64,000 bases of DNA from the NCBI GenBank assembly GCA_047967505.1, contig CM106538.1; one strand, 5' to 3'. The notes under the pieces are model-generated. The model had not been told where the DNA came from, searched no databases, and saw only the letters and a program-made list of their open reading frames with translations. Positions 18,163 to 42,357 of the stretch are shown here, piece by piece. Origin of the DNA: Dipteris shenzhenensis (lineage: Eukaryota). A program made the position numbers and the translations under genes. How positions within the stretch are numbered: position 1 is the stretch's first letter; each line of letters opens with the position of its first letter.

Positions 18163-18175
18163 TGGTATCAGAGCC
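18163..18175 (+). promoter_or_regulatory. PBS (tRNA-iMet) of element D
   Basis: TGGTATCAGAGCC directly after the LTR end CAACA. Confidence 0.92.
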
Positions 18176-19016: not shown

Positions 19017-19418
19017 ATGGCTTGCTTATGCCAAATATGTGAAAAGCCAAAACATAAAGCAATGTCTTGTTATGCTACAAAGGATGAAAATGCCAACCTG
19101 ACTTCCTTATTGAAGATTGCCAAAACAATGGTTGCCAAAAAGGAAGCAACTACAGAGATCTACCCTCCCATAGCACTTTTATTTGACTCCAAGTACAAGA
19201 AAAAGATGAAGGTCAGACACCTAAGATATGCTTCTCTACACAACTATGGAGATGACAAGATAATTGTTCTCTTGAAGGATATGACTTTCAAATCCACTTG
19301 TTCTATCATAGTACCATCTTATAAGGCACTAGACACTGCCCATGTGGTAAGACCTTGCCTTGACATGGATATTTTGCCTCCACAAGATGAGGCATCCCAT
19401 GAAGATTATGCATTTTAA
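19017..19418 (+). CDS. 133-aa ORF with N-terminal CCHC zinc knuckle inside element D
   Basis: Intact ATG..TAA; CQICEKPKHKAMSC matches C-x2-C-x4-H-x4-C. Confidence 0.6.
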   Translation: MACLCQICEKPKHKAMSCYATKDENANLTSLLKIAKTMVAKKEATTEIYPPIALLFDSKYKKKMKVRHLRYASLHNYGDDKIIVLLKDMTFKSTCSIIVPSYKALDTAHVVRPCLDMDILPPQDEASHEDYAF

Positions 19419-20970: not shown

Positions 20971-22383
20971 ACTTATAGTATCAATCCATATTAGACTAAA
21001 CTAGATCTACATTGGTCAAACAAAGGTCTAAGACAATCGCCCAATAGTGAATCAGTAGGAAGGGACTCACCTGATACCATAAAAGGGATCCCATTTCCCT
21101 CATTGCAATGTTAGCATATAGTAGGTCTTTTAGCCAACATCAGATTGCAAGACTCCCCATAGCCCAAGGAGCACTTATTAGCCTTTAATAATGATAGGAG
21201 TGGGAGAAAAGGAGCAAAATACCTCTCTCCACCTTACCTTCCCACCTCACCATCATAGGAAGGGATAGTGTGATGCCAAAAATTGATATTTTTAATTTGG
21301 CATTGGTATTGTTTTTCTCTATGTTTGATAAGAGTTTGAGTATCAAGTGATAGCCTAGCGGCTCTCACTTATTTCTATTTTCTATGATATTGTATGGGAT
21401 GGAGAGGATGAGTGGAATGGCTCATTGTAAATACCATAGGTATGAATTATAAATACCTTGGTATGGGGTGAGAGTTATTTGTGTATGGGATTTTATGGAG
21501 TTTTTTAGAAAATAGGAAGAGTGAGTCATATAAAGAGGTGGGCTCATGTCCATGTGTTCCAATAATATAAGAGAGGCCACATGCCAAGCGTGTGGAAGGC
21601 ATGTGGAGGAGTGTGAAGTCAAGAGGAATCCTTCTAGAACTCCTATGTGGAATAAGGAGGATGTGGACATGTGGAAAAGAGAGGGTCCCTATGGACTCCA
21701 TGTGAGGAGACTCTTGACTTTCTCAATATTTTAGGAGTCTTGAGCATCTTGTGATGGGACACATGGCAAGAGTAGCCAAAAAGGACATGGATGGTGACAT
21801 ACGTGCTTATGTGATTGATGGGGAAAGGAATCTACAGGTAGCAATTGTAAATGGGTGAAGGAGGGTAACAAAATCTCTATAAAAGGAACCCTCCTCTCCC
21901 TTGTTCATCAATCTCTTCCACCATTAGGCCTTATGTTGCTATAGCTCTAGTCTCCCCAAGCCTCTTCCATGAGCCTTCTCTCCCTCTTGTAGATATTCTC
22001 TTATGTAGACTCTTGAGTCCATCTCTCTCTAGTTTATTCTCTCTCTATGAGTAGTCTTGGAGCTTCCGCTCCCTCTTGTATGTATGAAACCTCTTCTTCT
22101 CCCTTGTGTTTGTAATGTTGGAGTGGATTCTCACTCTATTTGTAATGAAGGTCACTTCAGGTTCTCTCTCTCTTGAGTGTCTCTTCCCTTTTCTTTCTTT
22201 CAAAGCCTTAAAAGTTCTTTCTATTCGGCTGCTCACTGTGCACACATGGTCCATCTATTTCCTGAGCCACCATGCAAACTTCTTCCCCTCATCTAGGCGA
22301 AATCAATGAGGGGTGGATCGTTGATGAAGGTGGAGTCTTGAGGGAGCATCCTGCTCAGGCGAAATTAGCATGGATGGAGGGCA

Positions 22384-22920
22384 ATTTTCATGACAGTTTG
22401 ACCCCCTGTTAGTATTTTGCTCATAACTTTCTGCCGGTAGTCCGATTGTAATGAAATTTATATCAGCGCGAAGCTCTCTTTAAGGGCATGTTTGTATGTG
22501 GTCAGATCTTGAATCAAATACTGCTGCAATAAGTTATGATTCTCTGTGTGTGACAGTCTGTTTTTATGACAGTTTTTTCCCCCGTCTAGTAAACTGTCCA
22601 TAACTTTTTGGCCGCTTCTCTGTTTCTTACGAAACATATATCAGCACGAAGCTCTCTTTAAGGCGCATGTCTCTAATGCTTATATCTTGAATCAGATACT
22701 ACTGCAAAATGTTATGAGTCTCTGTGTCTGACAGTCTGTTTTCATGATAGTTTTTACCCCCTTTGAGTAAACTATCCATATCTCTTCAACCGTCTGTCTG
22801 TTTTCAATGAAACTTATATCAGCGCGAAGCCCATCTCAAGGCGCATCTCTTTGTTGATTGAATCTTTGATATCATGTCTCTACTGAAAGTTATAGGTCTT
22901 TGTGTCTAATGACAGTTTGT
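22384..22920. repeat. Three ~178-bp tandem repeats inside the LTR of E (also ~30175-30710)
   Basis: TATCAGC anchor at 22461, 22639 and 22817. Confidence 0.85.
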
Positions 22921-22965
22921 AGAGTGTTTTGAGCTAAGTATAAAGGTGTCTATGAAGGAGGTGCA

Positions 22966-23190
22966 ATATTTCCTCGGAATCTACCCATCCGACCCAATCA
23001 GCCCCTTCAAACTCCTAGATATATATCAATTCATGTCATGTTGAGCTGCAAGATCTTCTTTCAACAACGTATCGCTCTTCTCTTTGGCGCAGACCAGCTC
23101 GTTGAGATTATGGCCTCTGCTGATCCTTTCCTTCTCCCTATGCTTGATTACAACATCACTTGGGATGTTACCATCTTCATTCTCATCTGA
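22966..23190 (+). pseudogene. ORF-A copy in the 5' LTR of E (start codon ATA, otherwise open)
   Basis: IFPRNLPIRPNQP..QQRIALLFG..PFLLPMLDYNITWDVTIFILI*. Confidence 0.7.
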
Positions 23191-23340
23191 GGGAGGAAAG
23201 TATGGTATGGTATCTTGGCATAAAAGCTTCTTTCTAATGTCCCATTCTCAATGATAAATATCTTTGGCAGTCAATTTGAAAGCAGTAGGAAGTGAAGAGG
23301 TGCGTGAAGTTTATTACCCCCAACTTCATGTCACATCTTT

Positions 23341-23357
23341 TGGTGGAGACGCCGGGT
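23341..23357 (+). promoter_or_regulatory. PBS of E, probably tRNA-Ala
   Basis: TGGTGGAGACGCCGGGT, 5 nt after the LTR, is complementary to a ..TCTCCACCA 3' end typical of eukaryotic tRNA-Ala. Confidence 0.7.
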
Positions 23358-23458
23358 ACGTTTGGTATTGGATTCATCCCACCTTACTAAATAGTCTCGG
23401 GTGTGCTTGATTGCATGTTATGCCTAGAAGAGGCATGTGTTTTGATGAGGTAAAGAAG

Positions 23459-23599
23459 ATGCTTGGAAGAACTCCGTTAGAAGAGATTGCAACCCGTTTA
23501 AGAGAACTTGAAGATTGTGAAGGTGATGCTCAAGCTATTCGCACAGTCACCATGATCATATCCTTTATGTTTGCACTGTTGAATATGTTGGTGAATTGA
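23459..23599 (+). CDS. Accessory ORF-B of element E (46 aa)
   Basis: MLGRTPLEEIATRLRELEDCEGDAQAIRTVTMIISFMFALLNMLVN*; homolog at 13954-14118 (-). Confidence 0.75.
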   Translation: MLGRTPLEEIATRLRELEDCEGDAQAIRTVTMIISFMFALLNMLVN

Positions 23600-23943
23600 C
23601 AACACCGGCAGCAGGCACAATGATAGATTGGGGATTGTTCCATGCACTGGTAGCTTGGTGTGAAGAAGAGTTGAGTCTTTGGGTAGTTTTCGACTATAAT
23701 AGTGGAGTGGTGATTCTTAATGCTTTCAACTTCTTTTGCTATGCAAATGATGAAGAGTACAATATCTTGAAGCTTTTATGTGTACTTCCTATTGTGAGAA
23801 GGGTGATTCTAGAATGCATGTATACACAATGTTTTCATGGTGCTGGTTGGTGGTCACTTACTTTTGAAGATTTTGTTGAGGATCACATTGTGGAGGGTTT
23901 TCAACAAGTGGTTATGCATAATAAGTTGGTCTTGGTATACTAA
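23596..23943 (+). CDS. Accessory ORF-C of element E (107-115 aa, unknown function)
   Basis: Open frame between ORF-B and gag (first ATG at 23620), protein-like composition, weak similarity to ORF-0 of C. Confidence 0.55.
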   Translation: MTTPAAGTMIDWGLFHALVAWCEEELSLWVVFDYNSGVVILNAFNFFCYANDEEYNILKLLCVLPIVRRVILECMYTQCFHGAGWWSLTFEDFVEDHIVEGFQQVVMHNKLVLVY

Positions 23944-24017
23944 GGCTCTATGGGATCTTGTTCAAATCTTGTTTGGGATATTATTTGGATCTTGGTGTTT
24001 CCTTTTTGTGTTTCATC

Positions 24018-25454
24018 ATGGTGAAGATTCCAGTGTTTCGAGGGACCCAAGGGGAAGACCCGGAGTCTTATCTTCAGGATTTTGTTCGAGGATGCCGGCT
24101 TTCTGGATGGTCCATGAAGGATCGGGCAGAGATTTTGCCTGATTTTCTTGAAGGTGTAGCCTTGAGTTGGCATGAGACCTTGCCGGACTCTACCAAGGAG
24201 GACTGGAACCAAGTGGTGGCAGCAATGAAGCAGAGATTTGGGGCAGTGGAGTCGCCAAATGCTTTGATGTTGCAGTTGGACCGGTTCTATCAAGGAGAGG
24301 GTGAGTTGGTCTCTGCGTTGGCAATCCGATATGAAACTTTTTGGACAAAGTATGAAAGGGCAGCTTTGCGAGCTGTGGCATCTACATCATCGGCCCCTCA
24401 AAGTCTCTCAGGGATGCAGCACTTAAAGATGAGCAAATTTGTTATGGCTTTGGAGCCTCGTCTTCGCTCAAAAGTAATGAGTAAAGATCCAACAACATAC
24501 GTGGAGGCACTTCGCATTGCGACCAAGAAAGAAGCTTCTCTAAAGATCGAATCCTCTTTTGTGTCTTCAACAGCTTCAAATTCTAAGGTGGAGGTAATGG
24601 GCACTCCTCAAGTACCAAAGTCCTCTGAGTTAGATCATAATATCTCCCAATTGATGGCAGAGTTTGCTGATTTGAAATTGCATTTGGTTAATGCACGACA
24701 ACCTAGAGCACCAAAGAGTGAAGATAGGCCTCGAGATAGGAGTGGGGTCACTTGCTATGAATGTAATGAAAAAGATCACTATCACCCCGAGTGTCCTAAA
24801 TTGAGAAAGAAAGAAGAAAAACAAGTATCCTTGTTAGAAGCTTCTTCAGGGGATGAGGAAAGAGAGGTAATGATGGCTAAACGGGGGCGTGGTAAAGCAA
24901 AAGAAGAAGAAGAAAGCAAGGAAGAAGTAGATGAGGAACATCAAGAAGAGGAACACCATAGTAAGAAAAAGAAGGCATCTAGAAGGAGAATTAGCCAGTC
25001 AGACTTTCCTTTAGGACAAGGAATTGGAAGCTATGACTTGTTGTCCGACCTTAAAGAAAAGGAAGCTCATATCACCTTTGGTCAATTACTTGCTTTGTCT
25101 CCAAAACTACGGAAGGAATGGGGAAAACTAGCAAGCACAAGAGTGTCAAAGAAGAAAAAGAAGAAAAGTGCCATTCCTATTGTTCAAAAGGTAGATATAG
25201 ATGTTGGTGATGATGTACCTGTGGTTGATGTGATCATTGATGGTCAAGTGATTTCTAATGTGTACATTGATGGAGGTGCATTGATTAATGTCATGAGTGA
25301 GAAGACCATGATAGATACTGATTTAAAATACTCTAGTACTACCTCTCCTTATCACATCAAATTGGCTAACAACACTAGGGTTAAGACCTTGGGAGTTGTG
25401 AAGAATCTAGAAGTGGATGTATGTGGAATTTCTATGCCGACTACTTTTCAGTGA
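24018..25454 (+). CDS. Element E gag-protease
   Basis: MVKIPVFRG..LPDFLEGVALSWHE; knuckle CYECNEKDHYHPEC; protease VYIDGGALINVM; frameshift near 25440. Confidence 0.92.
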   Translation: MVKIPVFRGTQGEDPESYLQDFVRGCRLSGWSMKDRAEILPDFLEGVALSWHETLPDSTKEDWNQVVAAMKQRFGAVESPNALMLQLDRFYQGEGELVSALAIRYETFWTKYERAALRAVASTSSAPQSLSGMQHLKMSKFVMALEPRLRSKVMSKDPTTYVEALRIATKKEASLKIESSFVSSTASNSKVEVMGTPQVPKSSELDHNISQLMAEFADLKLHLVNARQPRAPKSEDRPRDRSGVTCYECNEKDHYHPECPKLRKKEEKQVSLLEASSGDEEREVMMAKRGRGKAKEEEESKEEVDEEHQEEEHHSKKKKASRRRISQSDFPLGQGIGSYDLLSDLKEKEAHITFGQLLALSPKLRKEWGKLASTRVSKKKKKKSAIPIVQKVDIDVGDDVPVVDVIIDGQVISNVYIDGGALINVMSEKTMIDTDLKYSSTTSPYHIKLANNTRVKTLGVVKNLEVDVCGISMPTTFQ

Positions 25455-25899
25455 TCCCTACCAAGCCAGATGCACGTGCCTATCCATTGATTTTGGGAAG
25501 GCCTTGGCTACGCAAGGTGAAGGCTGTTCAAAAGTGGGATACTGGAGAATTGATTTGCAAGGAAATGATAAGAAGGTGCGCTACAACATCAGAAGCCGCA
25601 AAAAGGAAGTTGTCAAGGAGGAGTCTTCAACATCAAAGAGTTCAAGCTCTGACTTAACCAATGAAGAAGAAGAGACAGGGTGTAGCTTCGAGGAGTCCAA
25701 CTCAGAGGGTGAGGTGGAAGGAGTGGCCTTTGGTCTTTGTCTTGGTGCTGATCGGGATGAGTCAGGAAGGAACAAGGTGGTGGTGCAAGAAGATCCTATA
25801 GAGACACTTCATGTGGAGGATGTGGAGCACACTAAATGACGCCAATGCAATGAAGAGCTTCTTGGTGATTCTCTATCAGGTAGTGAGAAGCTCCAGTAC

Positions 25900-28800
25900 T
25901 TGGATATGCTAGATGATTTTCCATGTTTGTTTGCAACAAGCTATTCACAGGTTCGACCAGTCTCTCTTGTGGAGCACAAGATTGAGTTGAAGCCAGAAAG
26001 CAAGCCAGTTGTGCAACGCTTAAGGCGATTGGGGGTGATCCAAGCTGAGGCACTAAAGAAAGAGGTAACACAACCAGTTGAGGCGGGATTCATCTTTCCT
26101 GTTGATGATTCAGAATGGATATCTCCTGTAGTTGTCACACCAAAGAAAGGAAATAAGTGGCGAGTTTGTGTGGACTTTCGTCCTTTGAATGCATGCACTA
26201 AGAGGGATCATTTTCCTTTGCCATTCCAAGATGAAATACTAGACCAAGTAGTAGGGCATGAGATGTATTTTGTATGTGATGGGTATTCTGGGTACTTTCA
26301 AATTTGTATTCGGGAGGAAGATCAAAAGAAAACATCATTTGTCACACCTTGGGGAGTTTTTGCTTACAGAGTGATGCCTTTTGGGTTGACGAATGCACCA
26401 GCTACATTTCAAAGGTTCATGAGTCAAGTCCTGGAGCCTTACTTGGGAAAGTTCATAAGGGTGTTTTTGGATGATTTTTGCATTTATTCTCAGCACATAG
26501 ATCACATGGAGAAGTTAAAGATGGCCTTAGCTAGGATTGATGAAGCAAAAGGGTGTCTAAATCCTAGCAAGTGTCATTTGGCTCAAACAAAAGTAGTCTT
26601 GTTGGGGCATATTGTGTGTGAAGAAGGCCTGCAAATGGATCCTGACAAGGTTCAAGCAATCATGACATTGCCAAGTCCTGAGAGTGTCACTGGTGTTCGC
26701 AGAATTCTAGGAAAGAGCAAGTATTATCAACACTTTTGTGATGATTTCACAGAGATAGTGCATCCCATGAACTTGTTGACAAGAAAAGGAGTTTCTTTCC
26801 AATGGGGTGTGGAGCAACAAGAATCTTTCCAGCAACTTAAGGAGGCCATGAGTAAGGGCCCAATATTGAAGCCCCCTAATTGGTCTCAAGATTTTTATGT
26901 AAATCCAAGTGTATCTTTGCATTCAGTTGGTGCTGTATTGCTACAAAAAGGAGAGGTAGGTAGAATGCAACCCATCTATTATGCCAGCCAACAGCTTACA
27001 AATGTGGAAACAAGGTATGAAGAAATGGAGCAGCAAACTCTCTCTTTGGTGTTTTCCATCAGAAACTTTCGCTCCTATTTATTACCTCGACCATTTTTCT
27101 TCCTTACCTCTCAGTTTGTATTAGCATATCTAGTTCGCAAGCCTAATCCTGGGGGGAGATTTGCAAAATGGTTGTCAGAGCTTCAAGAGTTCTCTTTCTC
27201 TTTTGTCACGAAAAATACCACTAGGTCCACTATGGCAGATTTGTTCACAGGACGGGAGGATCTAGGAGAAGAAAAGAAATGTAAGGAGAACATTAAAGAT
27301 GAAAGGGATACACCACCAACAACTTTTGTTTTGTATTTTGATGGGGCTTTTAGTCCTTCATGCCAACAAGGAGCCGGGGGGATAGTCTTGATGAATCCTG
27401 AAGGTCAAGAGGTATGGGCAAGAGGACAAGAGCTTCCAGGTATCACTACTAACAATGCAGCTGAGTATAATGCTTTGATTCTTGGTTTGGAGGGTTGTGT
27501 TCAAAGTCAAGTTAAAGAATTGGAAGTAAGAGGAGATTCTCAGCTTATTATAAAGCAAATGCAAGGGCATTACAAGACAAGAAGTCCTCATTTGAAGGAG
27601 CTTAATCAAAAGGCTATGGCACTATGTAGTCAGTTTGATTTTTGCAAGTTTGTTCATATAAACAGAAAAGAAAATCAAAGGGCAGATGAGTTAGCTACTC
27701 AAGCCATTGTAGTACAAGACCGGGGGGTGGTTTCTTTGGTAGACACTGGATGGCCAGAACTACAAGATGTTCAGCAATATGTGGAAGAAGGCATGTTTCC
27801 TCGAGGGTTAACTCCACAACAGAAGCAGAGATTGGTAAGGAAGGCTTGTCCCTATACTATTATTGATGACATTCTTTATAAATTGGGAAAAGATAAGGTG
27901 CTCTGTCGAGTGGTCCATCCCATGGAGACTAGGAGAATCCTAGAAATGTGTCATGAATGCTCTGGTCATTTTACTTCAGCAAGCACAGCTATGAGAATTC
28001 TTAATGCAGGCTACTTTTGGCCACACCTCCATAAGGATGTATATGAATGGTGTCGAAGTTGTAAAGTATGCCAAAAGTTTGGAAGGCGACATTTGATTCC
28101 TGGGCCCTTGAAGCCTATTCTAGCATATGGACCATTTGAGAGGTGGGGGTTGGACTTTGTGGGACCACTCCCTCGCTCATCTCAAGGCAAGCATTATTTA
28201 TTGGTGGCCACAGATTATGCGACTCGATGGGCAGAGGCCAAGGCCACAGTCAATAGCAAGGCAAGCACAGTTGCAAAATTTCTCTTTGATCAAATTTATT
28301 CACGCTTTGGTTGTCCTTTGGAAATTCTCACTGATGGAGGAACCTCTTTTAGAAATGAACTAATTGAACATGTGGTGCATAAGCTAAAGATAAATCATAG
28401 CATGTCCATGCCATACTATCCCCAATGTAATGGCTTGGTTGAGAAAACAAATGGATTGTTGTGCAATTCAATGGGAAAGCTTGTTGACACTAAGAAAAGG
28501 CATTGGGATAGGCACTTGGCAGAAGTTTTATGGGCTTACAGAACCACACACAAGCTAGCTATTGGGTTTACAGCATTCCAACTAGTGTATGGAATAGAAG
28601 CCATTTTACCCATTGAATTGGAGATACATAGTCTTCGCACAGCTGTTGCAAGAATAAAAGGGCAAGAGGATGCCTATGCTCAACACTTGGTACAGCTAGA
28701 AGCCTTGGATGAATGCAGATTACAGGCCTTACAAAACTTGAAATCTTCTCAAAAAAGGCGCAAGGCCCATTTTGACACCAAATTATGCAAGAAGAAAGAT

Positions 28801-29007
28801 ATTGCAGAAGGAGATTTGGTAATGAGATTTGATAGCCGTCTGGACAAGCGGCTAGACAAAAAGTTTATCGGTCGATGGGAGGGACCATATCGAGTCAAAA
28901 AGAAGTTCACGAATGGAACCTATAAGCTTGAGGAGGTTGATGGCATGGTGATACCCGGACGCACCAATGAGTATCGCCTTAAATTCTTCTATGCTCGACT
29001 ACCTTGA
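25900..29007 (+). CDS. Element E pol: RT - degenerate RH - aRH - integrase
   Basis: RT (MPFGLTNAPATFQR, FLDDF), RH (FYVNPS..VGAVLLQ), aRH (LYFDGA..TNNAAEY..GDSQLIIKQ..HINRKENQRADELA), INT (WGLDFVGP, TDGG, NGLVEKTN). Confidence 0.95.
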   Translation: MDMLDDFPCLFATSYSQVRPVSLVEHKIELKPESKPVVQRLRRLGVIQAEALKKEVTQPVEAGFIFPVDDSEWISPVVVTPKKGNKWRVCVDFRPLNACTKRDHFPLPFQDEILDQVVGHEMYFVCDGYSGYFQICIREEDQKKTSFVTPWGVFAYRVMPFGLTNAPATFQRFMSQVLEPYLGKFIRVFLDDFCIYSQHIDHMEKLKMALARIDEAKGCLNPSKCHLAQTKVVLLGHIVCEEGLQMDPDKVQAIMTLPSPESVTGVRRILGKSKYYQHFCDDFTEIVHPMNLLTRKGVSFQWGVEQQESFQQLKEAMSKGPILKPPNWSQDFYVNPSVSLHSVGAVLLQKGEVGRMQPIYYASQQLTNVETRYEEMEQQTLSLVFSIRNFRSYLLPRPFFFLTSQFVLAYLVRKPNPGGRFAKWLSELQEFSFSFVTKNTTRSTMADLFTGREDLGEEKKCKENIKDERDTPPTTFVLYFDGAFSPSCQQGAGGIVLMNPEGQEVWARGQELPGITTNNAAEYNALILGLEGCVQSQVKELEVRGDSQLIIKQMQGHYKTRSPHLKELNQKAMALCSQFDFCKFVHINRKENQRADELATQAIVVQDRGVVSLVDTGWPELQDVQQYVEEGMFPRGLTPQQKQRLVRKACPYTIIDDILYKLGKDKVLCRVVHPMETRRILEMCHECSGHFTSASTAMRILNAGYFWPHLHKDVYEWCRSCKVCQKFGRRHLIPGPLKPILAYGPFERWGLDFVGPLPRSSQGKHYLLVATDYATRWAEAKATVNSKASTVAKFLFDQIYSRFGCPLEILTDGGTSFRNELIEHVVHKLKINHSMSMPYYPQCNGLVEKTNGLLCNSMGKLVDTKKRHWDRHLAEVLWAYRTTHKLAIGFTAFQLVYGIEAILPIELEIHSLRTAVARIKGQEDAYAQHLVQLEALDECRLQALQNLKSSQKRRKAHFDTKLCKKKDIAEGDLVMRFDSRLDKRLDKKFIGRWEGPYRVKKKFTNGTYKLEEVDGMVIPGRTNEYRLKFFYARLP

Positions 29008-29058
29008 CGGCCAACAGATCGGCTCTGTACTAGAGAGGATCTGCTGGGGGGGGAAAGA

Positions 29059-31127
29059 TGTGATGCCAAAAATTGATATTTTTAATTTGGCATTGGTATT
29101 GTTTTTCTCTATGTTTGATAAGAGTTTGAGTATCAAGTGATAGCCTAGCGGCTCTCACTTATTTCTATTTTCTATGATATTGTATGGGATGGAGAGGATG
29201 AGTGGAATGGCTCATTGTAAATACCATAGGTATGAATTATAAATACCTTGGTATGGGGTGAGAGTTATTTGTGTATGGGATTTTATGGAGTTTTTTAGAA
29301 AATAGGAAGAGTGAGTCATATAAAGAGGTGGGCTCATGTCCATGTGTTCCAATAATATAAGAGAGGCCACATGCCAAGCATGTGGAAGGCATGTGGAGGA
29401 GTGTGAAGTCAAGAGGAATCCTTCTAGAACTCCTATGTGGAATAAGGAGGATGTGGACATGTGGAAAAGAGAGGGTCCCTATGGGCTCCATGTGAGGAGA
29501 CTCTTGACTTTCTCAATATTTTAGGAGTCTTGAGCATCTTGTGATGGGACACATGGCAAGAGTAGCCAAAAAGGACATGGATGGTGACATACGTGCTTAT
29601 GTGATTGATGGGGAAAGGAATCTACAGGCAGCAATTGTAAATGGTAAAGGAGGGTGACAAAATCTCTATAAAAGGAGCCCTCCTCTCCCTTGTTCATCAA
29701 TCTCTTCCACCATTAGGCCTCATGTTGCTATAGCTCTAGTCTCCCCAAGCCTCTTCCATGAGCCTTCTCTCCCTCTTGTAGATATTCTCTTATGTAGACT
29801 CTTGAGTCCATCTCTCTCTAGTTTATTCTCTCTCTATGAGTAGTCTTGGGGCTTCTGCTCCCTCTTGTATGTATGAAACCTCTTCTTCTCCCTTGTGTTT
29901 GTAGTGTTGGAGTGGATTCTCACTCTATTTGTAATGAAGGTCACTTCAGGTTCTCTCTCTCTTGAGTGTCTCTTCCCTTTTCTTTCTTTCAAAGCCTTAA
30001 AAGTTCTTTCTATTCGGCTGCTCACTGTGCACACATGGTCCATCTATTTCCTGAGCCACCATGCAAACTTCTTTCCCTCTTCTAGGCGAAATCTATGAGG
30101 GGTGGATCGTTGATGAAGGTGGAGTCTTGAGGGAGCATCCTGCTCAGGCGAAATTAGAATGGGTGGAGGGCAGTTTTCATGACAGTTTGACCCCCTGTTA
30201 GTATTTTGCTCATAACTTTCTGCTCGGTAGTCCGATTGTAATGAAATTTATATCAGCTCAAAGCTCTCTTTAAGGGCATGTTTGTATGTGATCAGATCTT
30301 GAATCAAATACTGCTGCAAAAAGTTATGATTCTCTGTATTTGACAGTCTGTTTTCATGATAGTTTTTACCCCCGTCTAGTAAACTGTCCATAACTTTTTG
30401 GCCGCTTCTCTGTTTCTTACGAAAAATATATCAACACGAAGCTCTCTTTAAGGGGCATGTCTTTAGGTACTTATATCTTGAATCAGATACTGCTGCAAAA
30501 TGTTATGAGTCTCTGTGTCTGACAGTCTGTTTTCATGATAGTTTTTACCCCCTTCTAGTAAACTGTCCATATCTCTTCAACCGTTTGTCTGTTTTCAATG
30601 AAACCTATATCAGCGCGAAGCCCATCTCAAGGCGCATCTCTTTGTGTGATTGAATCTCTGATATCATGTCTCTACTGAAAGTTATAGTCCTCAGTGTCTA
30701 ATGATAGTTTGTAGAGTGTTTTGAGCTAAGTATAAAGGTGTCTATGAAGGAGGTGCAATGTTTCCTCGGAATCTACCCATCCGACCCAATCAGCCCCTTC
30801 AAACTCCTCGATATATATCAGTTCATGTCATTTTGAGCTGCAAGATCTTCTTTCAACAACGTATCACTCTTCTCTTTGGCACAGACCGGCTCATTGAGAT
30901 TATGGCCTCTGCTGATCCTTTCCTTCTCCCTATGCTTGATTACAACATCACTTGGGATGTTACCATCTTCATTCTCATCTAAGGGAGGAAAGTATGGTAT
31001 GGTATCTTGGCATAAAAGCTTCTTTCTAATGTCCCATTCTCAATGATAAATATCTTTGGCAGTCAGTTCGAAAGCACTAGGAAGTGAAGAGGTGCGTGAA
31101 GTTTATTACCCCCAACTTCATGTCACA
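29059..31127 (+). repeat. 3' LTR of E
   Basis: Follows the PPT GGGGGGGGAAAG; direct repeat of 21269-23335. Confidence 0.96.
30758..30982 (+). CDS. Intact accessory ORF-A (74 aa) in the 3' LTR of E
   Basis: MFPRNLPIRPNQP..VILSCKIFFQQRITLLFG..PFLLPMLDYNITWDVTIFILI*; homolog in C at 14696-14920. Confidence 0.75.
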   Translation: MFPRNLPIRPNQPLQTPRYISVHVILSCKIFFQQRITLLFGTDRLIEIMASADPFLLPMLDYNITWDVTIFILI

Positions 31128-33781
31128 ATAGCCCTTCATCTTTTAGTTGTATTTCAACCTATTAGAAGTATAATAAATGAGAAGTATACCATTTAGAAGT
31201 ATACTAAATGAGAAATACTCTCTTCAAAGCGTGGAAATTGCAACCGAATCCTACATTCTTCATACTCACAAATAAAAAGCACAAGAAGTGGCTCCCTTTA
31301 ACCTCAATTCATGTTTTAACATTCATCAAATAGTTAACAGGGTCAGGTATTGCTCACTTCTTTGTTACATTGGTTTCAAAGCTTCAATATTTTTTCGAAG
31401 ATTGTGAGATTAGAGTTAGGGAGGGTTGAATGAGACAAGCAAGAAATGATTTACAATTTTTCTAGAACGCAATGAGACACTTGCCCCTCCAACTTGAATG
31501 AATAAGTGACAATGGGATGATGCAATCCTTGCTGTGTATGTAGGCATAACCGTCACAAACCCCATCACTTATGTATAACAAATGTCTCAAGAGAGAGATT
31601 ATTCAAGGACCACATGAGACTATGCCACCCGAGGCTATCCAAGAATTTAAAAAATAAGGTGATTATGCTACTTAGGAGCTTGGAAGCCAAATAATAATAC
31701 AATCATGAGTCTCATGAGGAACAAGAATAATGTCATTAAGTCTTCTTCTCTCACAAAACTTAATTTGTCTATGTCATGGCAATAAGATGGATCCTCTAAT
31801 TCTACTAACATGTCTTAAAGTTACTTTTTCATGGTCCCTATTATGGACAATGAGGATTGTACATAGAGCTAGTTAGTTAGCTATGTGAAAGTTCTTGAAA
31901 GGTAGAACAAGACTTTCTTTCATCCACCTTAATACTAGCTATTCAATGATATGTTTGTAGTTTTAGGATGAAGGATTATGACGCTCTCTATTACTACGAG
32001 CTCGCATGGAAGTTTGAGCTCATGATCAAGTGGCAATAAGGATGCCCATAGCAAGGAATACCAAGACTCCACAATTCTTGGAGACAAAACTCTTGTGTAG
32101 CCTCTAACAGTGACTCATGTATAGCCTCCAATAGTGACTCATGTGTCATGGGGATCTTGGAAGAATGCCAATGAAGTCCTTGACTCCAACCTACTCCTTA
32201 TGAGAGCAATGCAAGCACAAACGGTTCACAAGTGATGGCTCTCAAAGTTGTTGCAATTATGAATCACTATGAAGAGAAGGGAGAGGAGAAGGGAGAGACA
32301 ATGAGGGGGGAGAAGGAGAAGGGGGATACAAGGAGAATGAAGGAAATAAGACACAACCCAAGAAGAGCATAAGTTGCTTGACTATCAACATCTCTCAATG
32401 AAGGCAGAGTCAACCAAAGTAAGAGAAATCTTTAAATAACTAATAGAGACAAGGCATTTGGAATTCCAAGTGCAAGTACAAGGCAAATCCATTGCTATTG
32501 GATTAAGGTAGATCATTAGTTGTTGGTATTGCAACTACAATGAAAGGCAAGCATTTATATCACCCAACCTGCACCTATACAAAGGGTAGAAATGTAAATG
32601 GTGTAGAGATGAAGACGCTCTGATGTACCTAGCAACATGCATGCAAAGGACTAACTAGAGCACTTGATGATACTTCCAACGCAGTTGATGTTGTAGGGGG
32701 CCAACTAAAAATAGGCAAGCCGTTTCTTCTTGTTTATGATGAGAATAGTCCATGAAGCATAAGAGAAGCCATCCAATGAAGGAGAAGAATCATATATGTA
32801 GATTGCTTGGGGTTTTTTTCCACATCTATAGAGTAGGATCAGTAGACCAATATACAACTAACTCACTCATGACCAACTTGGAGCTTACTTGGGTCTTTTT
32901 TCAACATTGGTAGAGTAGGATCTTCCAATTTGATCGTGTTTGCCGTAGTATTGAAAAGCATATGAAGCCAAAAGTCACGATTGTGAGAGTTGTATTGTCG
33001 CCACATCCAAGATGATTTAAGTTCTTTTATAAAGATCTAAATTCCAATCAATTAACGTTCTACATTCTATATATTTGGCAAACTAAATTTGCATCATTCC
33101 CATGGATGGGTTGAAATATCCCTTTGCGTTTTGGACATCTTGATTTTGAGCTTTGGTTGCTCTCTTGCAAAGGTGCTTTAGACTCATTTTTTATTGTGAG
33201 TTGCAATTTATGGAGATTGGTTCATAGAGAGGAGGATATGATGGTTTTTCCCAAAGTGTCATCCCCATATTCTCTCATTATTGATGTCCTAGAGTTAAGA
33301 TCTATCGTCATACTTTATGCATTAGATACACAATTTTTTTTTCTTAGCTAATTCTACACCACTTTAGCCATCTTTAACCTTGGTCTTCCCAAGATTTCCA
33401 AGAACATAAGCTAATTTTAATTTTATCAAAGAAATAAAACAAAAGAAATAATAGGTGATTTGTGTGTGTGTGTGTGGATTAGATAAGAAGCCCAAAAGAA
33501 GGTCCAAGAATATATGCATAACAAAAAACATGATAAGATATTCCACGGGTAAAATCTTTTACAATACTTCAACCAACAATGCTCATCCCTCCAATAAGAA
33601 CAAGTTAGAACATGAAATTACCATTACTCTAGTTTCGAATACATGCTTCATAGCATAGCTAGACTTGTTATTGATGTCCAAAGCAATGTGCTAAGTATTA
33701 TTATCCAAGGAGACACACCATGGGTTAGAAGTATTAAGCCCATATACACTAAAAATAGATTATGTATACTACCAACAAAAA

Positions 33782-33891: not shown

Positions 33892-35471
33892 CCATACTTA
33901 GTAAGAAGCATACATCAATGTTAAAGAAGACCCATTTTTTAGGTTAATCTTATGATGAAGCATTACCAAAATAAGGCACTTTTTAGGGAAGTAAAGATAA
34001 ATCACTAATTAGTGAGCCAAAACACAATGAGGATTCCTTTGAAACCTTGTGATGTGCAAAGTGTATCATGAAGCAATGAATAGAACTTTGTGGAGCTAGC
34101 AAGAGTACATCAAGGACCACAAAGAGAGAGAGAGAGAGAGAGAGAGAGGATTACGTAAAACATAAAAGAAATTGCACAACTATACAACTACATTTTAAAA
34201 ACCAGCTGAAAGCACCAAATCCAAGATTGGTACAAACAATATCACTAGTTGCATCTACTTTTCCTTGTAAGCTTTGTAGAGTAAACTAGCATTTTTTTCC
34301 AATTGATTTGGACACTAGCACATGATAGAAAAAGTCCTACATAAAGAGCACGTTGCCATTGGAATCCATTTAGCCCTTCTTAACTTTAGAGTCTGATTTA
34401 TTGTTTTAAGTGATGTGATTGGATGGACAATGGCAAATCCGTAGAGCCAGGATTGTGTCTTGGAGCTAGATGGGCCCAAGAGGATGGTAAAAGAATGAGA
34501 AGGGAGAGTAGTATAAAGAGATTAGGGTTGGCCCTCCCTTCAAAAGGTGACTTGTATAAAAGACCAAATGGTTGACTTTGGTCCTTATTGTTGTTTGCAC
34601 AAGTTTGAATACAAGCTCCCTCTTCTCTTCCAAGAGAGTGTTTTGGGTGTTCCCTTGTTTCCATTGTAGTGCCCTTGTGTTTGCCACTACATCCCCCTTC
34701 ACTCTCCTCTTCCCTTCTCCTTCTTCATCTCCTTCCCTTCTCCCTTCCCTTCTCCCCTCTCCCCCTTCCCTCTTTCTTGTGTGGAAACACATTAAACACA
34801 TTGCAACAATTTGGAGGCCTCTTGAGTGACACTTGTAGACGACTAATACTATGCATTGCTCTCACAAGGAGTAGCTTGGAGTGAAGGCTCCATCGGCAAC
34901 TCTTCAACATCCCCATGACACGTGAGTCACCCCCGAGACCCACAACATTTTTGGTGCTGCTATCGGGGAATGAAGGTATGCTTTTGCATTGCACTTGTCT
35001 TCCTTTATTATCTACCCATTGCACAAGTCTTCAAGCTTAACTTGGAGCTTGTTAGTGGAGTTGTAGGAGAAGAAAGAGGGAGGAAGTGAGAGGTTTGGAT
35101 GAAAAAGTAGGAAAACTGTTTTTTTTTGTTGGAAAGTCATTTTGGAGCATTTGAAGCTTGTTTTTTATGCTTTTTAGTGTTTTGAGTTGGAAGGAAGATA
35201 GTTTGTAAGATTTCTTAGGAGCGTATGAGGTCGAAACACACAAAAAACAACAAAAATTTATGAATCTTGCTGAATTTTGAAGTGGTTTTGTGTGGTAAAA
35301 CTCACCCCTCAAGAAATCTTGCATTTTGCCTTTCAAAAGTTGTTTTTCTTTCAAGTTTTTTTCATTGAGTAGGTAGATTAGGTAGTTTAGCCCTCCCCCA
35401 TCACAAAAGAACATGAACAGAAACTTCACAATCATCATGAATCATCAAAAACCAATCAGTGAAATTGTGTG

Positions 35472-36040
35472 TTCCTATCCCCACGGGTCGGTGCGATAGC
35501 CCTATCCTGCCGACCGACGCCATAATCATATCCCGCCGATCAAACTTGCATTGATCGGTGCCATAACCATATCTCATTGGTCAAACTTGTGTTGACCTAT
35601 CACCTTAGCAATATCCCGCCGACTTGCTATCATGCTAGTCGTTGCTTTAATTCTATCCCGCCGACTCGACAAATGCCAATACCTAACCCGTCACCCTAAT
35701 TAATTATTGTCAATCAGCTATCCCACTGGTCAAACTTGTGTTGACCCGGTGCCATAAGGCTATCCCGCCGGTCGTTGCCATAGCTCTATCCCATCGGCCG
35801 TTGCCTTAACTCTATCCTACCGACCGTTGCCATAACTCTATCCTGTCGACTTGCTATCTCGCCGGTCATTGCCATAGCTCTATCTCGTCGGCTGTTGCCT
35901 TAACTCTATCCTGCCGACTTACTATCCCACTGACCATTGCCATGACTTTATCCTGCCGACTTGCTATCCCGCCGGTTGTTGCTTTAGCTCTATCCCACCA
36001 ATCGTTTCCATAGCCCTATCCCCATGACTGTAGGGATAGC
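35472..36040. repeat. Degenerate minisatellite with core CTATCCCGCCG(A/G) in the leader of F
   Basis: Roughly 20 variable copies at 15-45 bp spacing (ttgccatagctctatcccgccg). Confidence 0.85.
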
Positions 36041-36924
36041 TCTGGGAACCCAAAAATTAAGAAAAAGCACATGAAAATTGGGCCACAAGGGGTTGCCTTC
36101 CCTTGACCCCATGTTGAGGCGGACTCTACCTAGAATTGAGGCCTCCCCTGTGGCAATGAACACATGATCTCGAGATCAAGAAGAGTCCTACAAGATCATC
36201 TTGAGCCTAAAGACAGTGTCTTAAATACCATCTTGTCGAACTCCATACATAGCTTGGCATCCTCAGGGTCAGTAAGCTCAAAAGTCAGTTCTCACTCATT
36301 ACAAGAACCACCACCAAGTGAATTATCAAGGCTTGAAAGAGTCCATGAGTTAAGATAGAGACATGGGTGAACCCTCCAATGTTAGAGCCTCAGTAGCTAT
36401 GGACTCCATCCCAACTGACCTCCACTCTCCTACCCCATCTACAGCACCAGCTACATTAAGGGAAACCTTTTCCAATATCATGGGAAGGTTTGGATTGACA
36501 GACCCAATAGAGTGGCTAAACCCATTTGCTGGGCAGACTAGGGCAATGTCAGAGGCTCAAATGCTAGCCCAACCACTGATCTCAGAAGCCATACTCAGGG
36601 AGCCAAGTCCCACGATACCTAATGGCAATCAACCCCTATCATAGCAATTCTTTGATGATAGGCAATCCAATGGGGAGGAATTTGGACCCACATTCTCACC
36701 AGGGGCCCAAAATCTAAAGCAAAGGGGGTAGAGGAGTAACCCTGAAGGTCAACAGTTAAGACCCTCCACCTCATAATCCCCCATGATGCCTCCTTGGCAG
36801 CAAAAGCATAGGAGATATTCCCTACCCAACAAGTGCCCCTTATAGGCCTATGCATGCAGGGAACATACCACTCCCTAGAGGACCTCTCGTCTAACCTATT
36901 AGGCCCAACCCAACCCAAGTCACA

Positions 36925-38660
36925 ATGCCAATGCCTAATGGGCCTGGATCCTCCCATCCCAACCTCATGACATCAAATCCGTGGAACTCTTCATCAAGAC
37001 CACCAATGTATGGGACATTGCCCACCATACCACAACCTCCTCCTGTATTACAAACGGTCCTTACAAACGAAGCTATGAGAATTCTAGTGCAAGCACTAGG
37101 AAGGGGGGCCGCCACTCCACTAATGTTTCCAAGATGGGATACCAACCCCTCAAGGAGAAAGCCTATCACAATCTCCAAGCTAATCACCAAGTTTGTAGGA
37201 GGAGGAGACCCAGTCTCCCATGTTGAGAGGTTTGAATAAATCTGTGAGACTTTGGTGATATTGGGGATCTAGACAAGGTCAATGCTTTTAGCTTGAGTCT
37301 TGATGGCAAGGCTGGACAATGGTTTAGAGCCTTAAACCCTGAGGATAAACTAAATTGGGACACATTGCATAAATCGTTCATTCTAGGGTTTGCCCCTAGT
37401 GGTCCCAAATGGAGCCCACTTAACCAGCTTTATGAGGTGAAGCAGAAGGACATTGAATCCTTAAGAGACTGTATCACTAGAATTAAACATTTGAACTCGT
37501 GATGTGAACCCCATGAGAGGATGAGTGATGTGAAACTTCTGCCACGCTTGCTCATAGGGCTATGGGATGCTAAGCTGTTGCTATGAATCCCACATCATTT
37601 GAGCTATGCAGCAAGATAGCGATATGCTTAGGGGATAACATGAGGGAGAATCCCCAATAGGATAAATCGTTAGTTTCCTTTGATATGTCCTAAATAGCAC
37701 AGGCTTCAACCTCAAAAGCAACTAGTGATGCAAGCATTATGCCCAAGGTGCTCAATAGGGAAGAGTTGGCCACAGATCTATTAAACAAGTTGAGCCAACA
37801 ATGGAATATAGAAGCACCAAAAGATGCTCCTAGCAACCCCCATCTCTTTCCACAAAGAGATAACATATGGTGCCGGGTATGCACGGGAAATCATCCCAAT
37901 GCCCTCGTCTTAGAGCCAAGCCAACACTCTATTGTGCCCATTGTGCTCATTGGGGAAATCATGACACATCCCAATGTCATCATCCTAGGGTGATTCCTCA
38001 ACCCATGTATCAACAAGGGCCGCATCTACCATTGCCTGCACCACCCGATCCATCCAATCAGGCACAATTGGCAATACAAGGAGCCACATCAGCCAATCAA
38101 GGGCAATTTAGGGCTCAAAACAATCCATTACCCCCGCCAATACTGGGACGTCAACCACCACCTCCACGAATTACTCTTCTGAATCAAGTATTGGTTGAAG
38201 AGCTACCTAGTGATTGGGGAGTCCCTAGACCTACCTTCAGTGGAAACAAATATCCCCAAAATGGTCACAATGCAAATTGGTCTAGCATTATAAGTCACTA
38301 CATTATACAAGGTGACCAACACATCCTGGTCTACCAAACAACACCGATTTCTCATAAAATGGGAGATAGGAACAACTTGACCAAGGCACAACCCATTCAA
38401 TGACATATGTGTCAAGGGCCACACCCTGCCAATGAGTGTCCATATAAGGGGAAATCTAAGTAGCCAATCACATGTGCACCAGCGTCAAATACACCACCAC
38501 CATTATGCACTAGGTGTGGTGTGGACCATCTTTTTAAGGATTGCTCGATGAGAAGGCCATCTAAGACCACAAGCCTTAACTTCTTAAGCATTGAGAGAGG
38601 CCAAGTGTCATAAGTATCCTTGAATGTAATCATGAGGTTGCAAGCTAAAGCCCTCAATAT
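36925..38660 (+). pseudogene. Element F gag remnant with several zinc-knuckle motifs
   Basis: KFVGGGDPVSHVERFE, SLDGKAGQWFRAL..WDTLHKSFILGF, QKDIESLRDCITR; Cys/His motifs at 37867-38545. Confidence 0.8.
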
Positions 38661-39553
38661 TTCCATATAATAAGCATTTACAATGGGTTAATAGGATCTA
38701 GTGAGGCCCTGTATAATATATGAGCCTAGCTCATGATACAAACAAGAAGATAATGTCACCATTCAAATCCATTTGACCTCTCAAAAACCTTTTGTTATGG
38801 TCTATTACAAGTTTTGCAAACTAAATCAATAATTTTCAAATAGATAATCATTTCAAGTGGAGTAGGCATGTCTAGTTGGGCCAAGTATTTGTAGTTGTAA
38901 GAAAATAATACAACGTCTGTCTCCCAGCCGTGCGCTCCTGTGAAAGAAGCTTCCATGGCATGCTGGAAATAGTAGAAGATGGAGGCTGAATGCTAAGGAA
39001 TCAGGGTTACTGTAGCCAGTGATGAAATGTGCTTCACGGGCTTGCTCTTATATAGCCACCAGTCATAGTCGGTTAGGCTCAATTGGGTGGCCGACCCAGT
39101 TCGCCCAAAACGGTCGATTGGGTCGGTCCAGAAATAGGCCACCGACCATACGATAGAACCAGTGGCGCAAAATAGAGCAACTAACCTATGGTCTCCATTC
39201 GGCCCATAGCCATCCGGGATCATCTGAGGCTCCAAACGGGCCCCACAACCCAAGAGTGGGCTACCTCGGAAAATGCTCCGTCTACCCTCAGTGCAGTCAG
39301 TCAAGGGATGCCTTCCCGCACTTGCATGTAGCCTAGTTGGCGGTGTGCCAACTCTATCTGAAGTTGTCCAGCCATCAGGCCACACATGGCCCCCATCTGG
39401 TGTCCAAACCAGGACCTACCGGATAACCGATCTACTCAAATGCCTTCTCCTCATATGGGGGGGCTTACAAGTAGAGTTAGCTGGTTCCCGCATAGTTACA
39501 CGAGTGGAGCATTGATATCTAACACCCCCCTCAATGTCCACCCGCAAGTAAAC

Positions 39554-42072
39554 TTACTTTTTTGGCCCAATGCCAAGTCGATGAAGATGCCTCTCTAGCA
39601 AGTCTCTTCCAAGAGCCTTCGTGAAGATCTCCGCAGCATTCTCTATAGTTGGACAGTACACTAAGTCGACCTCTCCATCCATGATCAGCTCGCGTACAAA
39701 GTGATATTGAATCTCAATGTGTTTTGTGCGAGCGTGGAACACCGGGTTCTTTGCAATCGCCATGCAACTTTGATTGTTACATGATAATTTCGTAGGCTTG
39801 TTCTACACTGCACCCATGTCCCCCAAAATCCTCCTCAACCACACTGCTTCACAAGAAGCAAAGCATGCAGATTTGTTCTCGGCCTCGGTAGAAGAAAGAG
39901 CAACTGTGGGTTGCTTCTTGCTGACCCATGACACAACTCTAGATCCAAGTGAGAAACAGTACCCTGTCACTCATCTCCAGCTGTCCACGTCTCCTGCCCA
40001 ATCCGAGTCACAGAATCCGGTCAAGATGTTGCCCTTGGTATAGGTGATGCCTTGATGTATTTCAGCACCCGCATCCCTGCCCTCCAATGGTTCTCCTGGG
40101 GCTTATTGGAAAACCTACTTAGTACACCACAGAAAAGGCTTGCAGTGGAGTCATCCTGTTCACAGCCTTCATGTAGCTACGATTGAGGATGTAAACTGCA
40201 GTGTTACATGCTTCAGCCCAAAAAGTCTTTGGCAAATCTTTCCCTTTCATCATACTCCGGCCCATTTCGTAGATGATGCGCATCTTGTGTTCTGCTACTC
40301 CAATTTGCTGTGATGTATGTGGCGGGGGTTTCTGCCTCTTGATTCCGTGACTTTTGTAGTAACTTTTGAATTCAATCGATGTGAACTCTCCACCTCTATC
40401 TGATCTCAGCTTCTTCACCTTCCTCCCCGATTCTTTCTCGACCATTACATGCCATTTCTTGAACCTACTGAAAGCCTCGTCTTTCGTCTTCAAGAAGTAT
40501 ATCCATATCCTTCTACTGTAGTCGTCGATCAGCGTCATGAAGTAGAAGGAACCACCCAAAGCTTCCGTCTCCATCTTTCCACAGAGGTCCGTGTGAACGA
40601 GCTCTGGAGGAGCCTTTGCTCTGTTGGCCTCTTTAGGAAAGGGCTGTCGATGCTACTTGCCCATCATGCAAGCTTCACATACATCGGGCAGATCTGAAAT
40701 TTCTGGTAGGTCTGCAATCATTCCACTTTTATGCATCTCCTTCAAAGAACTAAGGTTTAGATGACCAAACCTCTCATGCCACAGCTTAGTGTTCTTCACA
40801 TCCGCTCGAGCACTGAAAGCTGAGAGTTCGTAAATGTTGTTGCGCCGTGTACCTTTACCAACGACCTTTCCTTCAAGATCCAGGATCTATGCACCATTCT
40901 TATCGAATTGAACTTTGAGGTTTTGATCCGTGATCGCAGAAATGGACAACAAGTTCCTCTTGATATCTGGCACATAAAGAACATCGGACAAGTGTTTTAC
41001 AACTCCATCTGACTTGAGAGCAATCGTACCTTTTCCTTTTGCTGGACATTTTGCATCAGTGCCGACTGCTACCATGATGTCATTCCCTACTGGCTGTAGA
41101 GAGGTATACCAATCCTTTCGATTGGTCATGTGGCGCGATGCACCACTGTCAATGATCCAAGGTTCATCCGCAGGTACATGAACTGCCTCCGTGCAAATCT
41201 CCTCAATTGCTACGAACAGCTCTATTGGTACTGCCTGCGCGCTGTTGCTAGACTCTTTCTTTACTCCATTCTTCTCATCTGCAATCTTCTTTCGGTACTC
41301 ATTCTGCTTGTGCCCTGCCTTGTTGCAATAGAAGCACTTGATCTTCTTCTTTCTCTTTTTATCATTAAGATGGGTTACCAGAGTCCTTACCCTTACCTTT
41401 CTTTGATCTGGTCCAAAATGCTGAATCTTCTCCAGTCCTCGTCTTTTGACGCATCTCCTCCTCCAGAAGCATCGCGCTGAAATCCTCAAAGTTGAGGGGC
41501 GGATTTCTGTTCTACATATTCAATGCCGTAATAAGACCGTCGTACCTTGGTGGGAGAATCCGTATGCACCTTCATGCTGGATTCTCGCTGGTGATGGTGA
41601 TGCCAATCGCAGTCATCTGATCGCGCAGATTCTTCACCCTGGTGATGAACTTCTCTACCACTTCAGACTCAGATAATTTTTCGTTCGCGAGTTGAGTCTC
41701 CAGATTCTGAATCCACGTCTGATTCGTGGTCTCGTACTGATTTTTCAAGACCATCCATGCCTCCTCCAATGTGGTGACATGTTGAATTAACGCCATGACA
41801 GAATCACTAACACTGCAGACAATAGAACACCGTGCATCTGTATTTCTTCTTGTCCACGCGAGAATCTCATCCGCAGTTGGTACTATCTGTTGTCCTGCAT
41901 TGGCTGGATCCGGTCTCGGAACCGGCCTCACGTCCACCCCAATAGCAGTGTCCCAAAGCTCATATGCGCTTAGGATGGTCTTCATCTTGAACTTCCAGAG
42001 AGGATAGTTAGAGCCGTCCAACTTTCCACTTTCGCCGAACGGTGGGATTCGCAGTCTTGCAGGCTGGGCCAT
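39554..42072 (-). pseudogene. Copia X gag-PR-INT fused to RT C-terminus/RH (most of RT deleted)
   Basis: 41572-42072 gag, 40887-41489 (WIIDSGASRHMT), 40119-40574 INT. At ~40125 the sequence jumps to VLSRFSNKP..HW. 39554-39763 is RH (KNPVFHARTKHIEIQYHFVRE). Confidence 0.9.
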
Positions 42073-42357
42073 CTCTCACAATCTGCTCGCAAACAGAAAC
42101 ACACTACCAAATCTTCTTGCTCTATAGAGTCCAGGCTCTGATACCATGTAAGAAAATAATACAACGTCTGTGCTCAACAGATAATAGGATCTCGTACACA
42201 AGAGAGAAAACAAGATAGTATGGAGAATCCAAAATTTGATTACTGTAGAACTGATACAATAGAAGGCGCTGCCTCCCAGCCGCGCGCTCCTGTGAAAGAA
42301 GCTTCGATGGCATGCTGGAAACAGTAGAAGACGGAGGCTGAATGCTAAGGAATCAGG

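Follow-up and report, generated by a model that had tools for sequence, protein, structure and literature searches.

A so far undescribed family of small accessory genes in plant Ty3/gypsy elements, with a member located in the LTR of one of them

Introduction

What the extra ORFs of plant LTR retrotransposons do has long been asked. The matter comes up again with a Ty3/gypsy element, here called E, whose LTRs contain an open frame of 74 codons (ORF-A), and the questions are whether this frame is a gene, where such a gene normally resides and what its product could do. Element E lies in the window, by which we mean the whole 64-kb stretch of DNA that was analysed, and which contains two Ty3/gypsy elements with an additional RNase H (E and a second element, C), several copia elements and one LINE. 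A first reading of these letters, made without database searches and called here the sequence-only reading, had proposed that ORF-A encodes a genuine but unnamed small protein, conserved between E and C and encoded inside an LTR. We conclude that ORF-A represents a real and so far undescribed small accessory family of plant Ty3/gypsy elements; no published description of it was found in the literature, as covered by open main texts.

Results

Element E and the copies of ORF-A in its LTRs

The features discussed are collected in Table 1. Element E has the marks of a Ty3/gypsy element, namely LTRs of the form TG...CA, a primer-binding site (which we take to match tRNA-Ala), a polypurine tract, a target-site duplication and the order RT-RH-INT, and the PF13456 additional RNase H, a mark of the Tat clade that C has as well, sits between RH and INT. 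The end of its 5′ LTR at 23335 is backed by an independent contig from sequencing run X1 that departs from the element there, and the distance between the two LTRs is 0.027 (K2P). ORF-A is found in both LTRs downstream of a TATA-like box, as had been proposed, about 1,090 nt past the box in each; it ends 145 nt short of the LTR end in both, and the 5′ copy does begin with ATA, at 22966. The gene has been copied into both LTRs because the LTR end and the primer-binding site lie downstream of it, and it is still ahead of gag, on the same side as in the other elements described below. It would most simply be placed in a U5 or R region that has expanded. Members of the E family were also met in three further sequencing runs. 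Identity is 95-99% for most contigs of X1 and for all of those of X2; in X4, a divergent contig has a 2-nt insertion within ORF-A.

Expression of ORF-A from the LTR of E is doubtful, since 26 ATGs follow the TATA-like box of the 3′ LTR before the gene is reached and no clear splice acceptor was seen within 150 nt upstream of it. In one raw RNA run from a related organism, of which about 19% was examined, four partial reads were found. A Shine-Dalgarno-like stretch and a TATAAA stand just before the ATG (30730-30760); the metagenome loci described below do not share the former, which is probably due to chance. An Rfam search of 21200-24100 gave no real match, and no relic of a primer site of the type seen in the loci was found upstream of ORF-A in E. 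The LTR has three tandem repeats of ~178 nt past the TATA-like box and upstream of ORF-A (~22385-22920 and 30173-30643), and the number of repeat units differs in other copies.

Table 1. Positions of the features discussed, in window coordinates unless a metagenome locus is named
Feature	Position	Strand	Remarks
Element E, Ty3/gypsy	21269-31127	+	Order Gag, RT, RH, aRH, INT
Target-site duplication of E, 4 bp	21265-21268 and 31128-31131		
5′ LTR of E	21269-23335	+	TG...CA; TATA-like box at 21878
ORF-A twin in 5′ LTR of E	22966-23190	+	First codon ATA; frame otherwise open
Primer-binding site of E	23341-23356	+	5 nt past 5′ LTR, downstream of ORF-A
ORF-B of E	23420-23599	+	Small pre-gag ORF, 59 aa; common to element C
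107-aa pre-gag ORF of E	23620-23943	+	No significant relative found
gag and pol of E	24018-29007	+	Gag, RT, RH, additional RH, INT; three reading-frame segments
3′ LTR of E	29059-31127	+	TATA-like box at 29667
ORF-A, intact copy in 3′ LTR of E	30758-30982	+	ATG to TAA, 74 aa
Element C, Ty3/gypsy with additional RNase H	~17100-8700	-	Ends poorly preserved
Primer-binding-site candidate of C	16108-16127	-	
ORF-A homologue of C	14920-14696	-	Internal region; 74 codons; one in-frame stop, codon 63
Separate additional RNase H ORF of C	14696-14313	-	Upstream of gag; PF13456, E 7.9e-13; interrupted by stop
ORF-B homologue of C	14124-13984	-	
Decayed gag-pol of C	13712-8893	-	Gag, RT, RH, INT; no additional RH within pol
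Third ORF-A copy (T)	48875-48697	-	Frameshifted near 48753-48759; has stops
ORF-X/Y, accessory ORF of 170-270 aa	L008 1828-2634; L009 150-956; L010 330-1076; L004 472-978		z 4-8

Coding signal of ORF-A

The sequence-only reading had noted a common length and shared motifs in the ORF-A frames of E and C, and the two do have 74 codons each and align without gaps at 42% identity. Their alignment is significant, with a local score of 153 compared with 25.0±4.6 (SD) for shuffled sequences, none of which in 10,000 scored as high. The signal belongs to the frame, as the ORF frame scores 151 in this comparison and the five other frames in the same register score 16-76. Identity at the three codon positions is 0.53/0.70/0.38, so that second positions are best kept, and dN is 0.52 against a dS of 2.56 (NG86), a value at which the synonymous sites are saturated. 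Conservation at the codon level is also seen in the wider family, in which pN is lower than pS in 189 of 190 pairs (20 ORFs with DNA) and dN/dS is 0.05-0.13 in the six unsaturated pairs among the 14 closest. The view that ORF-A is a genuine coding sequence under selection is well supported by these comparisons, and it is presumably translated. The two copies within E are 91% identical as proteins and differ by seven non-synonymous changes and one synonymous change, a pattern that would be expected of drift after insertion.

The third copy in the window, T, which the sequence-only reading had overlooked, is 54% identical to ORF-A over 41 aa (dN 0.37, dS 1.05 over 41 codons). It lies antisense to a decayed gag-like region at ~37200-38600 (within 34943-38916, + strand), across the copia insertion at 38917-48469, and it may be a fragment of its own or a gene placed 3′ in antisense.

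The protein family

A word search with a single sequence found no relatives, and the family emerged only with profiles. A profile of four sequences matched 42 clusters among 1.84 billion representatives, one of which was a false repeat match, and a profile of 28 sequences matched 157 clusters from 446 candidates; among the 120 listed, none has a Pfam domain or a name. The ESM Atlas returned unnamed clusters only (0.95-0.96 in one query and 0.80 or less in another). P0012, a long tandem-repeat protein, was judged a false match and excluded, and the N-terminal part of P0026 looks chimeric. The bulk of the 153 proteins retained are 70-77 aa long (52 are of 75 aa and 29 of 72 aa), and their C-terminus is fixed, 138 of the 153 ending at the same alignment position. 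Nine positions, K29, Q34, F40, G41, L45, P54, Y62, D67 and L73, are conserved in at least 90% of 129 aligned sequences.

No matching family was found in Pfam (tested with 44 members), PHROGs or NCBIfam, and a PDB sequence search with ORF-A gave nothing significant. Pattern scans, which are insensitive, found no relatives in viral contigs, prokaryote genomes or phages, and a first metagenome scan of the same insensitive kind with the four-sequence profile was empty. The idea that ORF-A is a fragment of Gag or Pol was rejected, the hhalign probability being 0.1% against both E Gag and E Pol; the finding of no ORF-A-Gag fusion among 8,000 longer candidates scored is weak evidence. P0001, P0004 and P0022 are natural tandem or fused forms of ORF-A, and in P0001 and P0004 one strand is predicted to be shared by successive units, as the last of one and the first of the next.

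Predicted structure

AlphaFold gives a confident small domain for ORF-A, with a mean pLDDT of 84.9 and 85.6 in two runs and low confidence in the N-terminal tail. The order is beta-alpha-alpha-beta-beta, with a strand at 22-27, helices at 29-40 and 42-50, and strands at 55-60 and 68-73. The protein is thus predicted to have a flexible Pro/Asn-rich N-terminal tail of ~20 residues, followed by a compact soluble domain of a three-stranded sheet and two helices. Few polar residues are conserved, and neither a catalytic signature nor a membrane helix is predicted. The charge is near neutral: the E protein has a net charge of +1 and a maximum 19-residue hydropathy of 1.39, the A1 (first-paralog) and E proteins range from -1 to +2, and the second paralog, A2, reaches +3 to +4.

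Foldseek found no match at E <= 0.001, and the best fold match, a glyoxalase-like module (Z 3.2, rmsd 4.4, 48-49 aligned), is not significant; the absence of a significant match to these models does not establish a new fold. We take the order of strand and helices to resemble that of a KH domain, an assignment that was rejected because there is no GxxG loop between the helices; only one glycine is conserved (position 41, 99%), and the common residues at 44 are not glycine. A homodimer prediction scored 0.00 in a run without an alignment, in which the fold of the partner was uncertain. The proposal of a real but unnamed small protein holds up well, given the large family, the purifying selection, the fixed C-terminus and a confident predicted fold without a named relative.

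Genomic home of ORF-A

Eleven metagenome loci, selected by their similarity to ORF-A, were recovered from 380 pattern matches. In 10 of the 11 gag is directly downstream of ORF-A, in the eleventh, L011, it follows by way of the wrap-around of a collapsed contig, and the primer-site candidate that is visible in seven loci is upstream of ORF-A in all seven. In L004 and L011 gag-pol is one uninterrupted frame, 1,771 and 1,722 aa long respectively, and follows the Tat domain order. ORF-A normally resides in the internal region of Ty3/gypsy elements, most of them Tat-like, past the primer-binding site and ahead of gag. The claim that it is encoded inside an LTR is therefore correct for element E and incorrect for C, whose copy is internal, and for the metagenome loci, and the LTR location is a derived feature of E's family alone. 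The proposed spread by solo LTRs would follow logically in the case of E.

A2 is present in 7 of the 11 loci and forms a separate clade (support 100/99); L011 has a third paralog. At five of the seven A1-A2 junctions the stop and start codons overlap as AUGA, and at the other two they are 9 and 5 nt apart; the five AUGA overlaps may go back to only one or two events. An overlap of the UAAUG type is also found at L004, between ORF-X and gag. In a TURBS, the 18S-complementary UGGGA motif forms the core upstream of the junction. This motif was found at none of the seven A1-A2 junctions and nowhere within 120 nt of the five AUGA junctions; in C and E it lies 30 nt ahead of the stop, within a Trp-Asp codon pair, and in L004 its distance to the stop is 94 nt. 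The search for a conserved RNA structure at the AUGA junction gave nothing convincing (-4.9 kcal/mol, covariation term +0.64).

The accessory ORF-X/Y, for which no Pfam or PDB match was found, occurs in four of the loci, where it forms part of one pre-gag cassette of small genes with ORF-A. In L008, L009 and L010, ORF-Y has no AUG; its start at an acceptor-like AG is suggestive of splicing. The 107-aa ORF of E was rejected as a member of this group, as the ORF-X/Y profile does not match it; its comparison with ORF-X of L004 gave z 3.1, with 42 of 3,000 shuffles scoring as high. A hydrophobic ORF of ~49 aa stands right after the primer site in L008 (1678-1827) and at the start of L009 and is conserved between both, and P0024 is such an ORF fused to A1.

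Element C and its neighbours

In element C, ORF-A lies ~1.2 kb past the primer-site candidate, presumably a match to tRNA-His, and directly ahead of the RNase H ORF and gag, with no LTR location. Its stop overlaps the start of the additional RNase H ORF as TAATG (UAAUG), and the same adjacency is seen in protein P0003 from another assembly. ORF-B is the second small gene common to C and E, with a score of 123 compared with 22±4 for shuffled sequences (none of 3,000 as high; z 25); it has no Pfam match and was not found in the 11 metagenome loci. A stretch of C at ~15399-14930 (- strand) may be a decayed relative of ORF-X/Y, with z 4.8 in pairwise comparison, and is missed by the profile. Element C, with the rare placement of the additional RNase H ahead of gag (structure #4), and E, of structure #1, are neighbours in the window. 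The window also holds a LINE-like element at ~54000-61600 (+ strand) with endonuclease and RT, whose GC content is 55-63% in a 41% GC background, and nested copia elements together with two short elements whose LTRs are almost identical (100% and 96%), at 38917-48469, 42357-47945, 17874-20083 and 1991-5169.

Probable transfer between lineages

At 4164-7208 of L007 there is a Ty3/gypsy element with a DUF4100-type Gag that bears the same A1-A2 pair as the Tat elements. This Gag has no significant similarity to the other Gags, the RT is 25% identical to those of E and the Tat elements, and no additional RNase H match is seen; the A1 and A2 proteins are 61-69% identical to their counterparts in L002 and L003, with which they form a group of 100/100 support in a tree made of the sequences from this analysis only. 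L007 is one assembled contig and could be a chimera. A link between DUF4100 and a retrotransposon was not found in the literature searched. The LTRs of L007 and E have a common TATA context. In 43 of 45 pairs the core of ORF-A exceeds the N-terminal 170 aa of Gag in conservation, with medians of 47% for the ORF-A core and 25% for Gag where Gag is under 40%, a comparison that is biased because the loci were found through ORF-A similarity. Gag is described as a variable domain anyway (PMC6317226). The ORF-A pair appears, on the basis of these comparisons, to have been swapped between unrelated element lineages.

Discussion

We give about an even chance to the proposal that ORF-A would be a soluble adaptor without enzymatic activity, which would bind a host partner that is conserved and help the RNA or particle of the element past a host barrier, which could be silencing, export or trafficking. 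Such an adaptor would not be a lineage-specific Gag partner. A host partner is suggested because ORF-A stays constant while Gag changes, and the portability that comes with a host partner would explain the swapping among unrelated lineages. As for expression, we lean towards a first gene that would be read from the 5′ leader of the element, or from a spliced or subgenomic RNA, and a second paralog that would be translated by termination-reinitiation at AUGA.

Several other explanations have to be weighed. The products of badnavirus ORF I and ORF II are virion-associated, and ORF-A could likewise be a structural co-factor of its own particle, that is, a small Gag-binding or self-assembling protein present in a fixed ratio with its paralog. 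The position of ORF-A always directly ahead of gag would be accounted for in this way, as would the coupling of the paralogs, the strong purifying selection, the fixed hydrophobic C-terminal strand and the natural occurrence of P0001 and P0004 as tandem or fused forms; we nevertheless find it unlikely, as near-identical gene pairs stand beside dissimilar Gags (L007 compared with L002 and L003) and ORF-A is above Gag in conservation in 43 of the 45 pairs. The double-gene-block movement proteins of plant viruses are encoded by two small tandem genes, which the tandem arrangement seen here recalls. The position, size and selection signature of ORF-A also match those described for the Drosophila MDG1 sORFs (10.1101/2025.03.14.642691), but a cell-to-cell movement factor acting via plasmodesmata, as the plant counterpart of MDG1 sORF2, is improbable in our judgement, because the models predict neither a membrane helix nor a polybasic tract and no Pfam movement-protein family is matched by 44 members at E <= 1. 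To the same low degree we credit a regulator of the translation or export of the element's polycistronic RNA, of the kind of CERV (PMC10309623) or the caulimovirus transactivator: the leaders are AUG-rich and contain several ORFs, and the acceptor-like AG of ORF-Y suggests spliced RNAs that would need regulated export, but the A1 and E proteins, with net charges of -1 to +2, have no basic RNA-binding or nuclear-localisation tract and the charge of A2 is only +3 to +4.

For element E alone, ORF-A could be a passenger that had a function in the internal cassette of an ancestor and lost it when the LTR boundary shifted beyond the gene. This reading is compatible with the host-partner adaptor, and the 26 upstream ATGs, the 5′ copy without an ATG, the neutral divergence of the LTR copies and the frameshifted X4 relative all agree with it; it remains rather doubtful, since the 3′ copy, though on a long branch, still has its start codon, the core conserved in the family and a stop at exactly the family position, and neutral change between LTRs after insertion is expected of any element gene. 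The explanation that ORF-A is a chance frame, a regulatory uORF with an irrelevant peptide or the shadow of a conserved LTR or RNA structure has the lack of a named homologue in its favour, but it is scarcely credible in view of the well-kept second codon positions, the saturated synonymous sites, the frame-specific signal and the conserved length and predicted fold. At the other extreme, it is conceivable, though quite unlikely, that the Ty3/gypsy elements of non-flowering plants carry a swappable operon-like cassette with stop-start coupling and splicing, in which a pair of new-fold ORF-A proteins would move the element between cells or disarm silencing, and that solo LTRs of E would be promoter-plus-gene units helping others in trans. 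If this were true, cassette-bearing elements would be the plant equivalent of complex retroviruses.

We return to the host-partner adaptor as the preferred reading. Since ORF-A is small, well-folded according to the models, strongly selected and common to unrelated Ty3/gypsy lineages, it should be easy to express, localise and pull down, and would lead straight to the host barrier. With the stop-start overlaps, eukaryotic translational coupling would gain an example from plant LTR elements. A whole gene within an LTR is uncommon, and in the case of E it is the derived state of one family.

Comparison with known systems

A close likeness in arrangement is to the Drosophila MDG1 group, in which sORF1 and sORF2 are described as short pre-gag ORFs that are both translated; sORF2 has a membrane helix and a polybasic tract and is tied to cell-to-cell transmission, and sORF1 is helix-turn-helix-like (10.1101/2025.03.14.642691). 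The MDG1 sORFs and ORF-A are alike in being short sense ORFs of similar size between the 5′ end and gag. ORF-A lacks the transmembrane helix and the polybasic tract of sORF2 and of FAST-like fusogens, and its hydrophobic stretches are short predicted strands. It also differs in its predicted soluble alpha/beta fold, in its paralogs with stop-start overlaps and in its plant host, and the two are likened here by description.

Among plant elements, the extra ORFs of Ogre, Retand and TatIII are described as long and as having plant-mobile-domain or Transposase_28 domains, and in Ogre-like lineages the extra ORF is upstream of gag and in sense orientation (PMC4408406, PMC6317226, PMC7264820). ORF-A resembles these as an extra gene of a Tat or Tat-like element that, as in the Ogre-like lineages, is in sense and ahead of gag; it differs in its length of 70-77 aa and in having no plant mobile domain or Transposase_28 in 44 members. 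According to the accessible part of the 2015 paper, extra ORFs are absent from early Tat lineages and from moss Tat-like elements (PMC4408406). The 2019 survey, as far as its accessible text states, counted only ORFs of at least 250 codons and would miss the ORF-A family because of that cut-off (PMC6317226). By domain order, E corresponds to Tat structure #1 (RT-RH-aRH-INT) and C to structure #4, with the additional RNase H ahead of gag (PMC10508981). Structure #4 is reported, in the portion of that account accessible to us, only from four mosses and one clubmoss, with no Tat in algae, and no small ORFs are given there around the pre-gag additional RNase H (PMC10508981); in C this ORF belongs to a cassette and its start overlaps the stop of ORF-A. 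Going by that distribution of Tat structures, the host of E and C is probably a non-flowering land plant.

Termination-reinitiation at AUGA or UAAUG is described for caliciviruses, influenza B and the SART1 retrotransposon (PMC10275272). The ORF-A loci share with such TURBS-type coupling the overlapping or close stop and start codons (five AUGA, gaps of 9 and 5 nt, and two UAAUG) and differ in the missing UGGGA at the A1-A2 junctions; the coupling is putative. Other reverse-transcribing elements also make accessory proteins, from RNA that is spliced or polycistronic, such as CERV of C. elegans Cer1 (PMC10309623) and the products of badnavirus ORF I and ORF II; no sequence or fold link between these and ORF-A was found, and they serve as an analogy only. 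In the accessible part of an Arabidopsis atlas, more host contacts are predicted for accessory than for core transposon proteins (PMC13547354).
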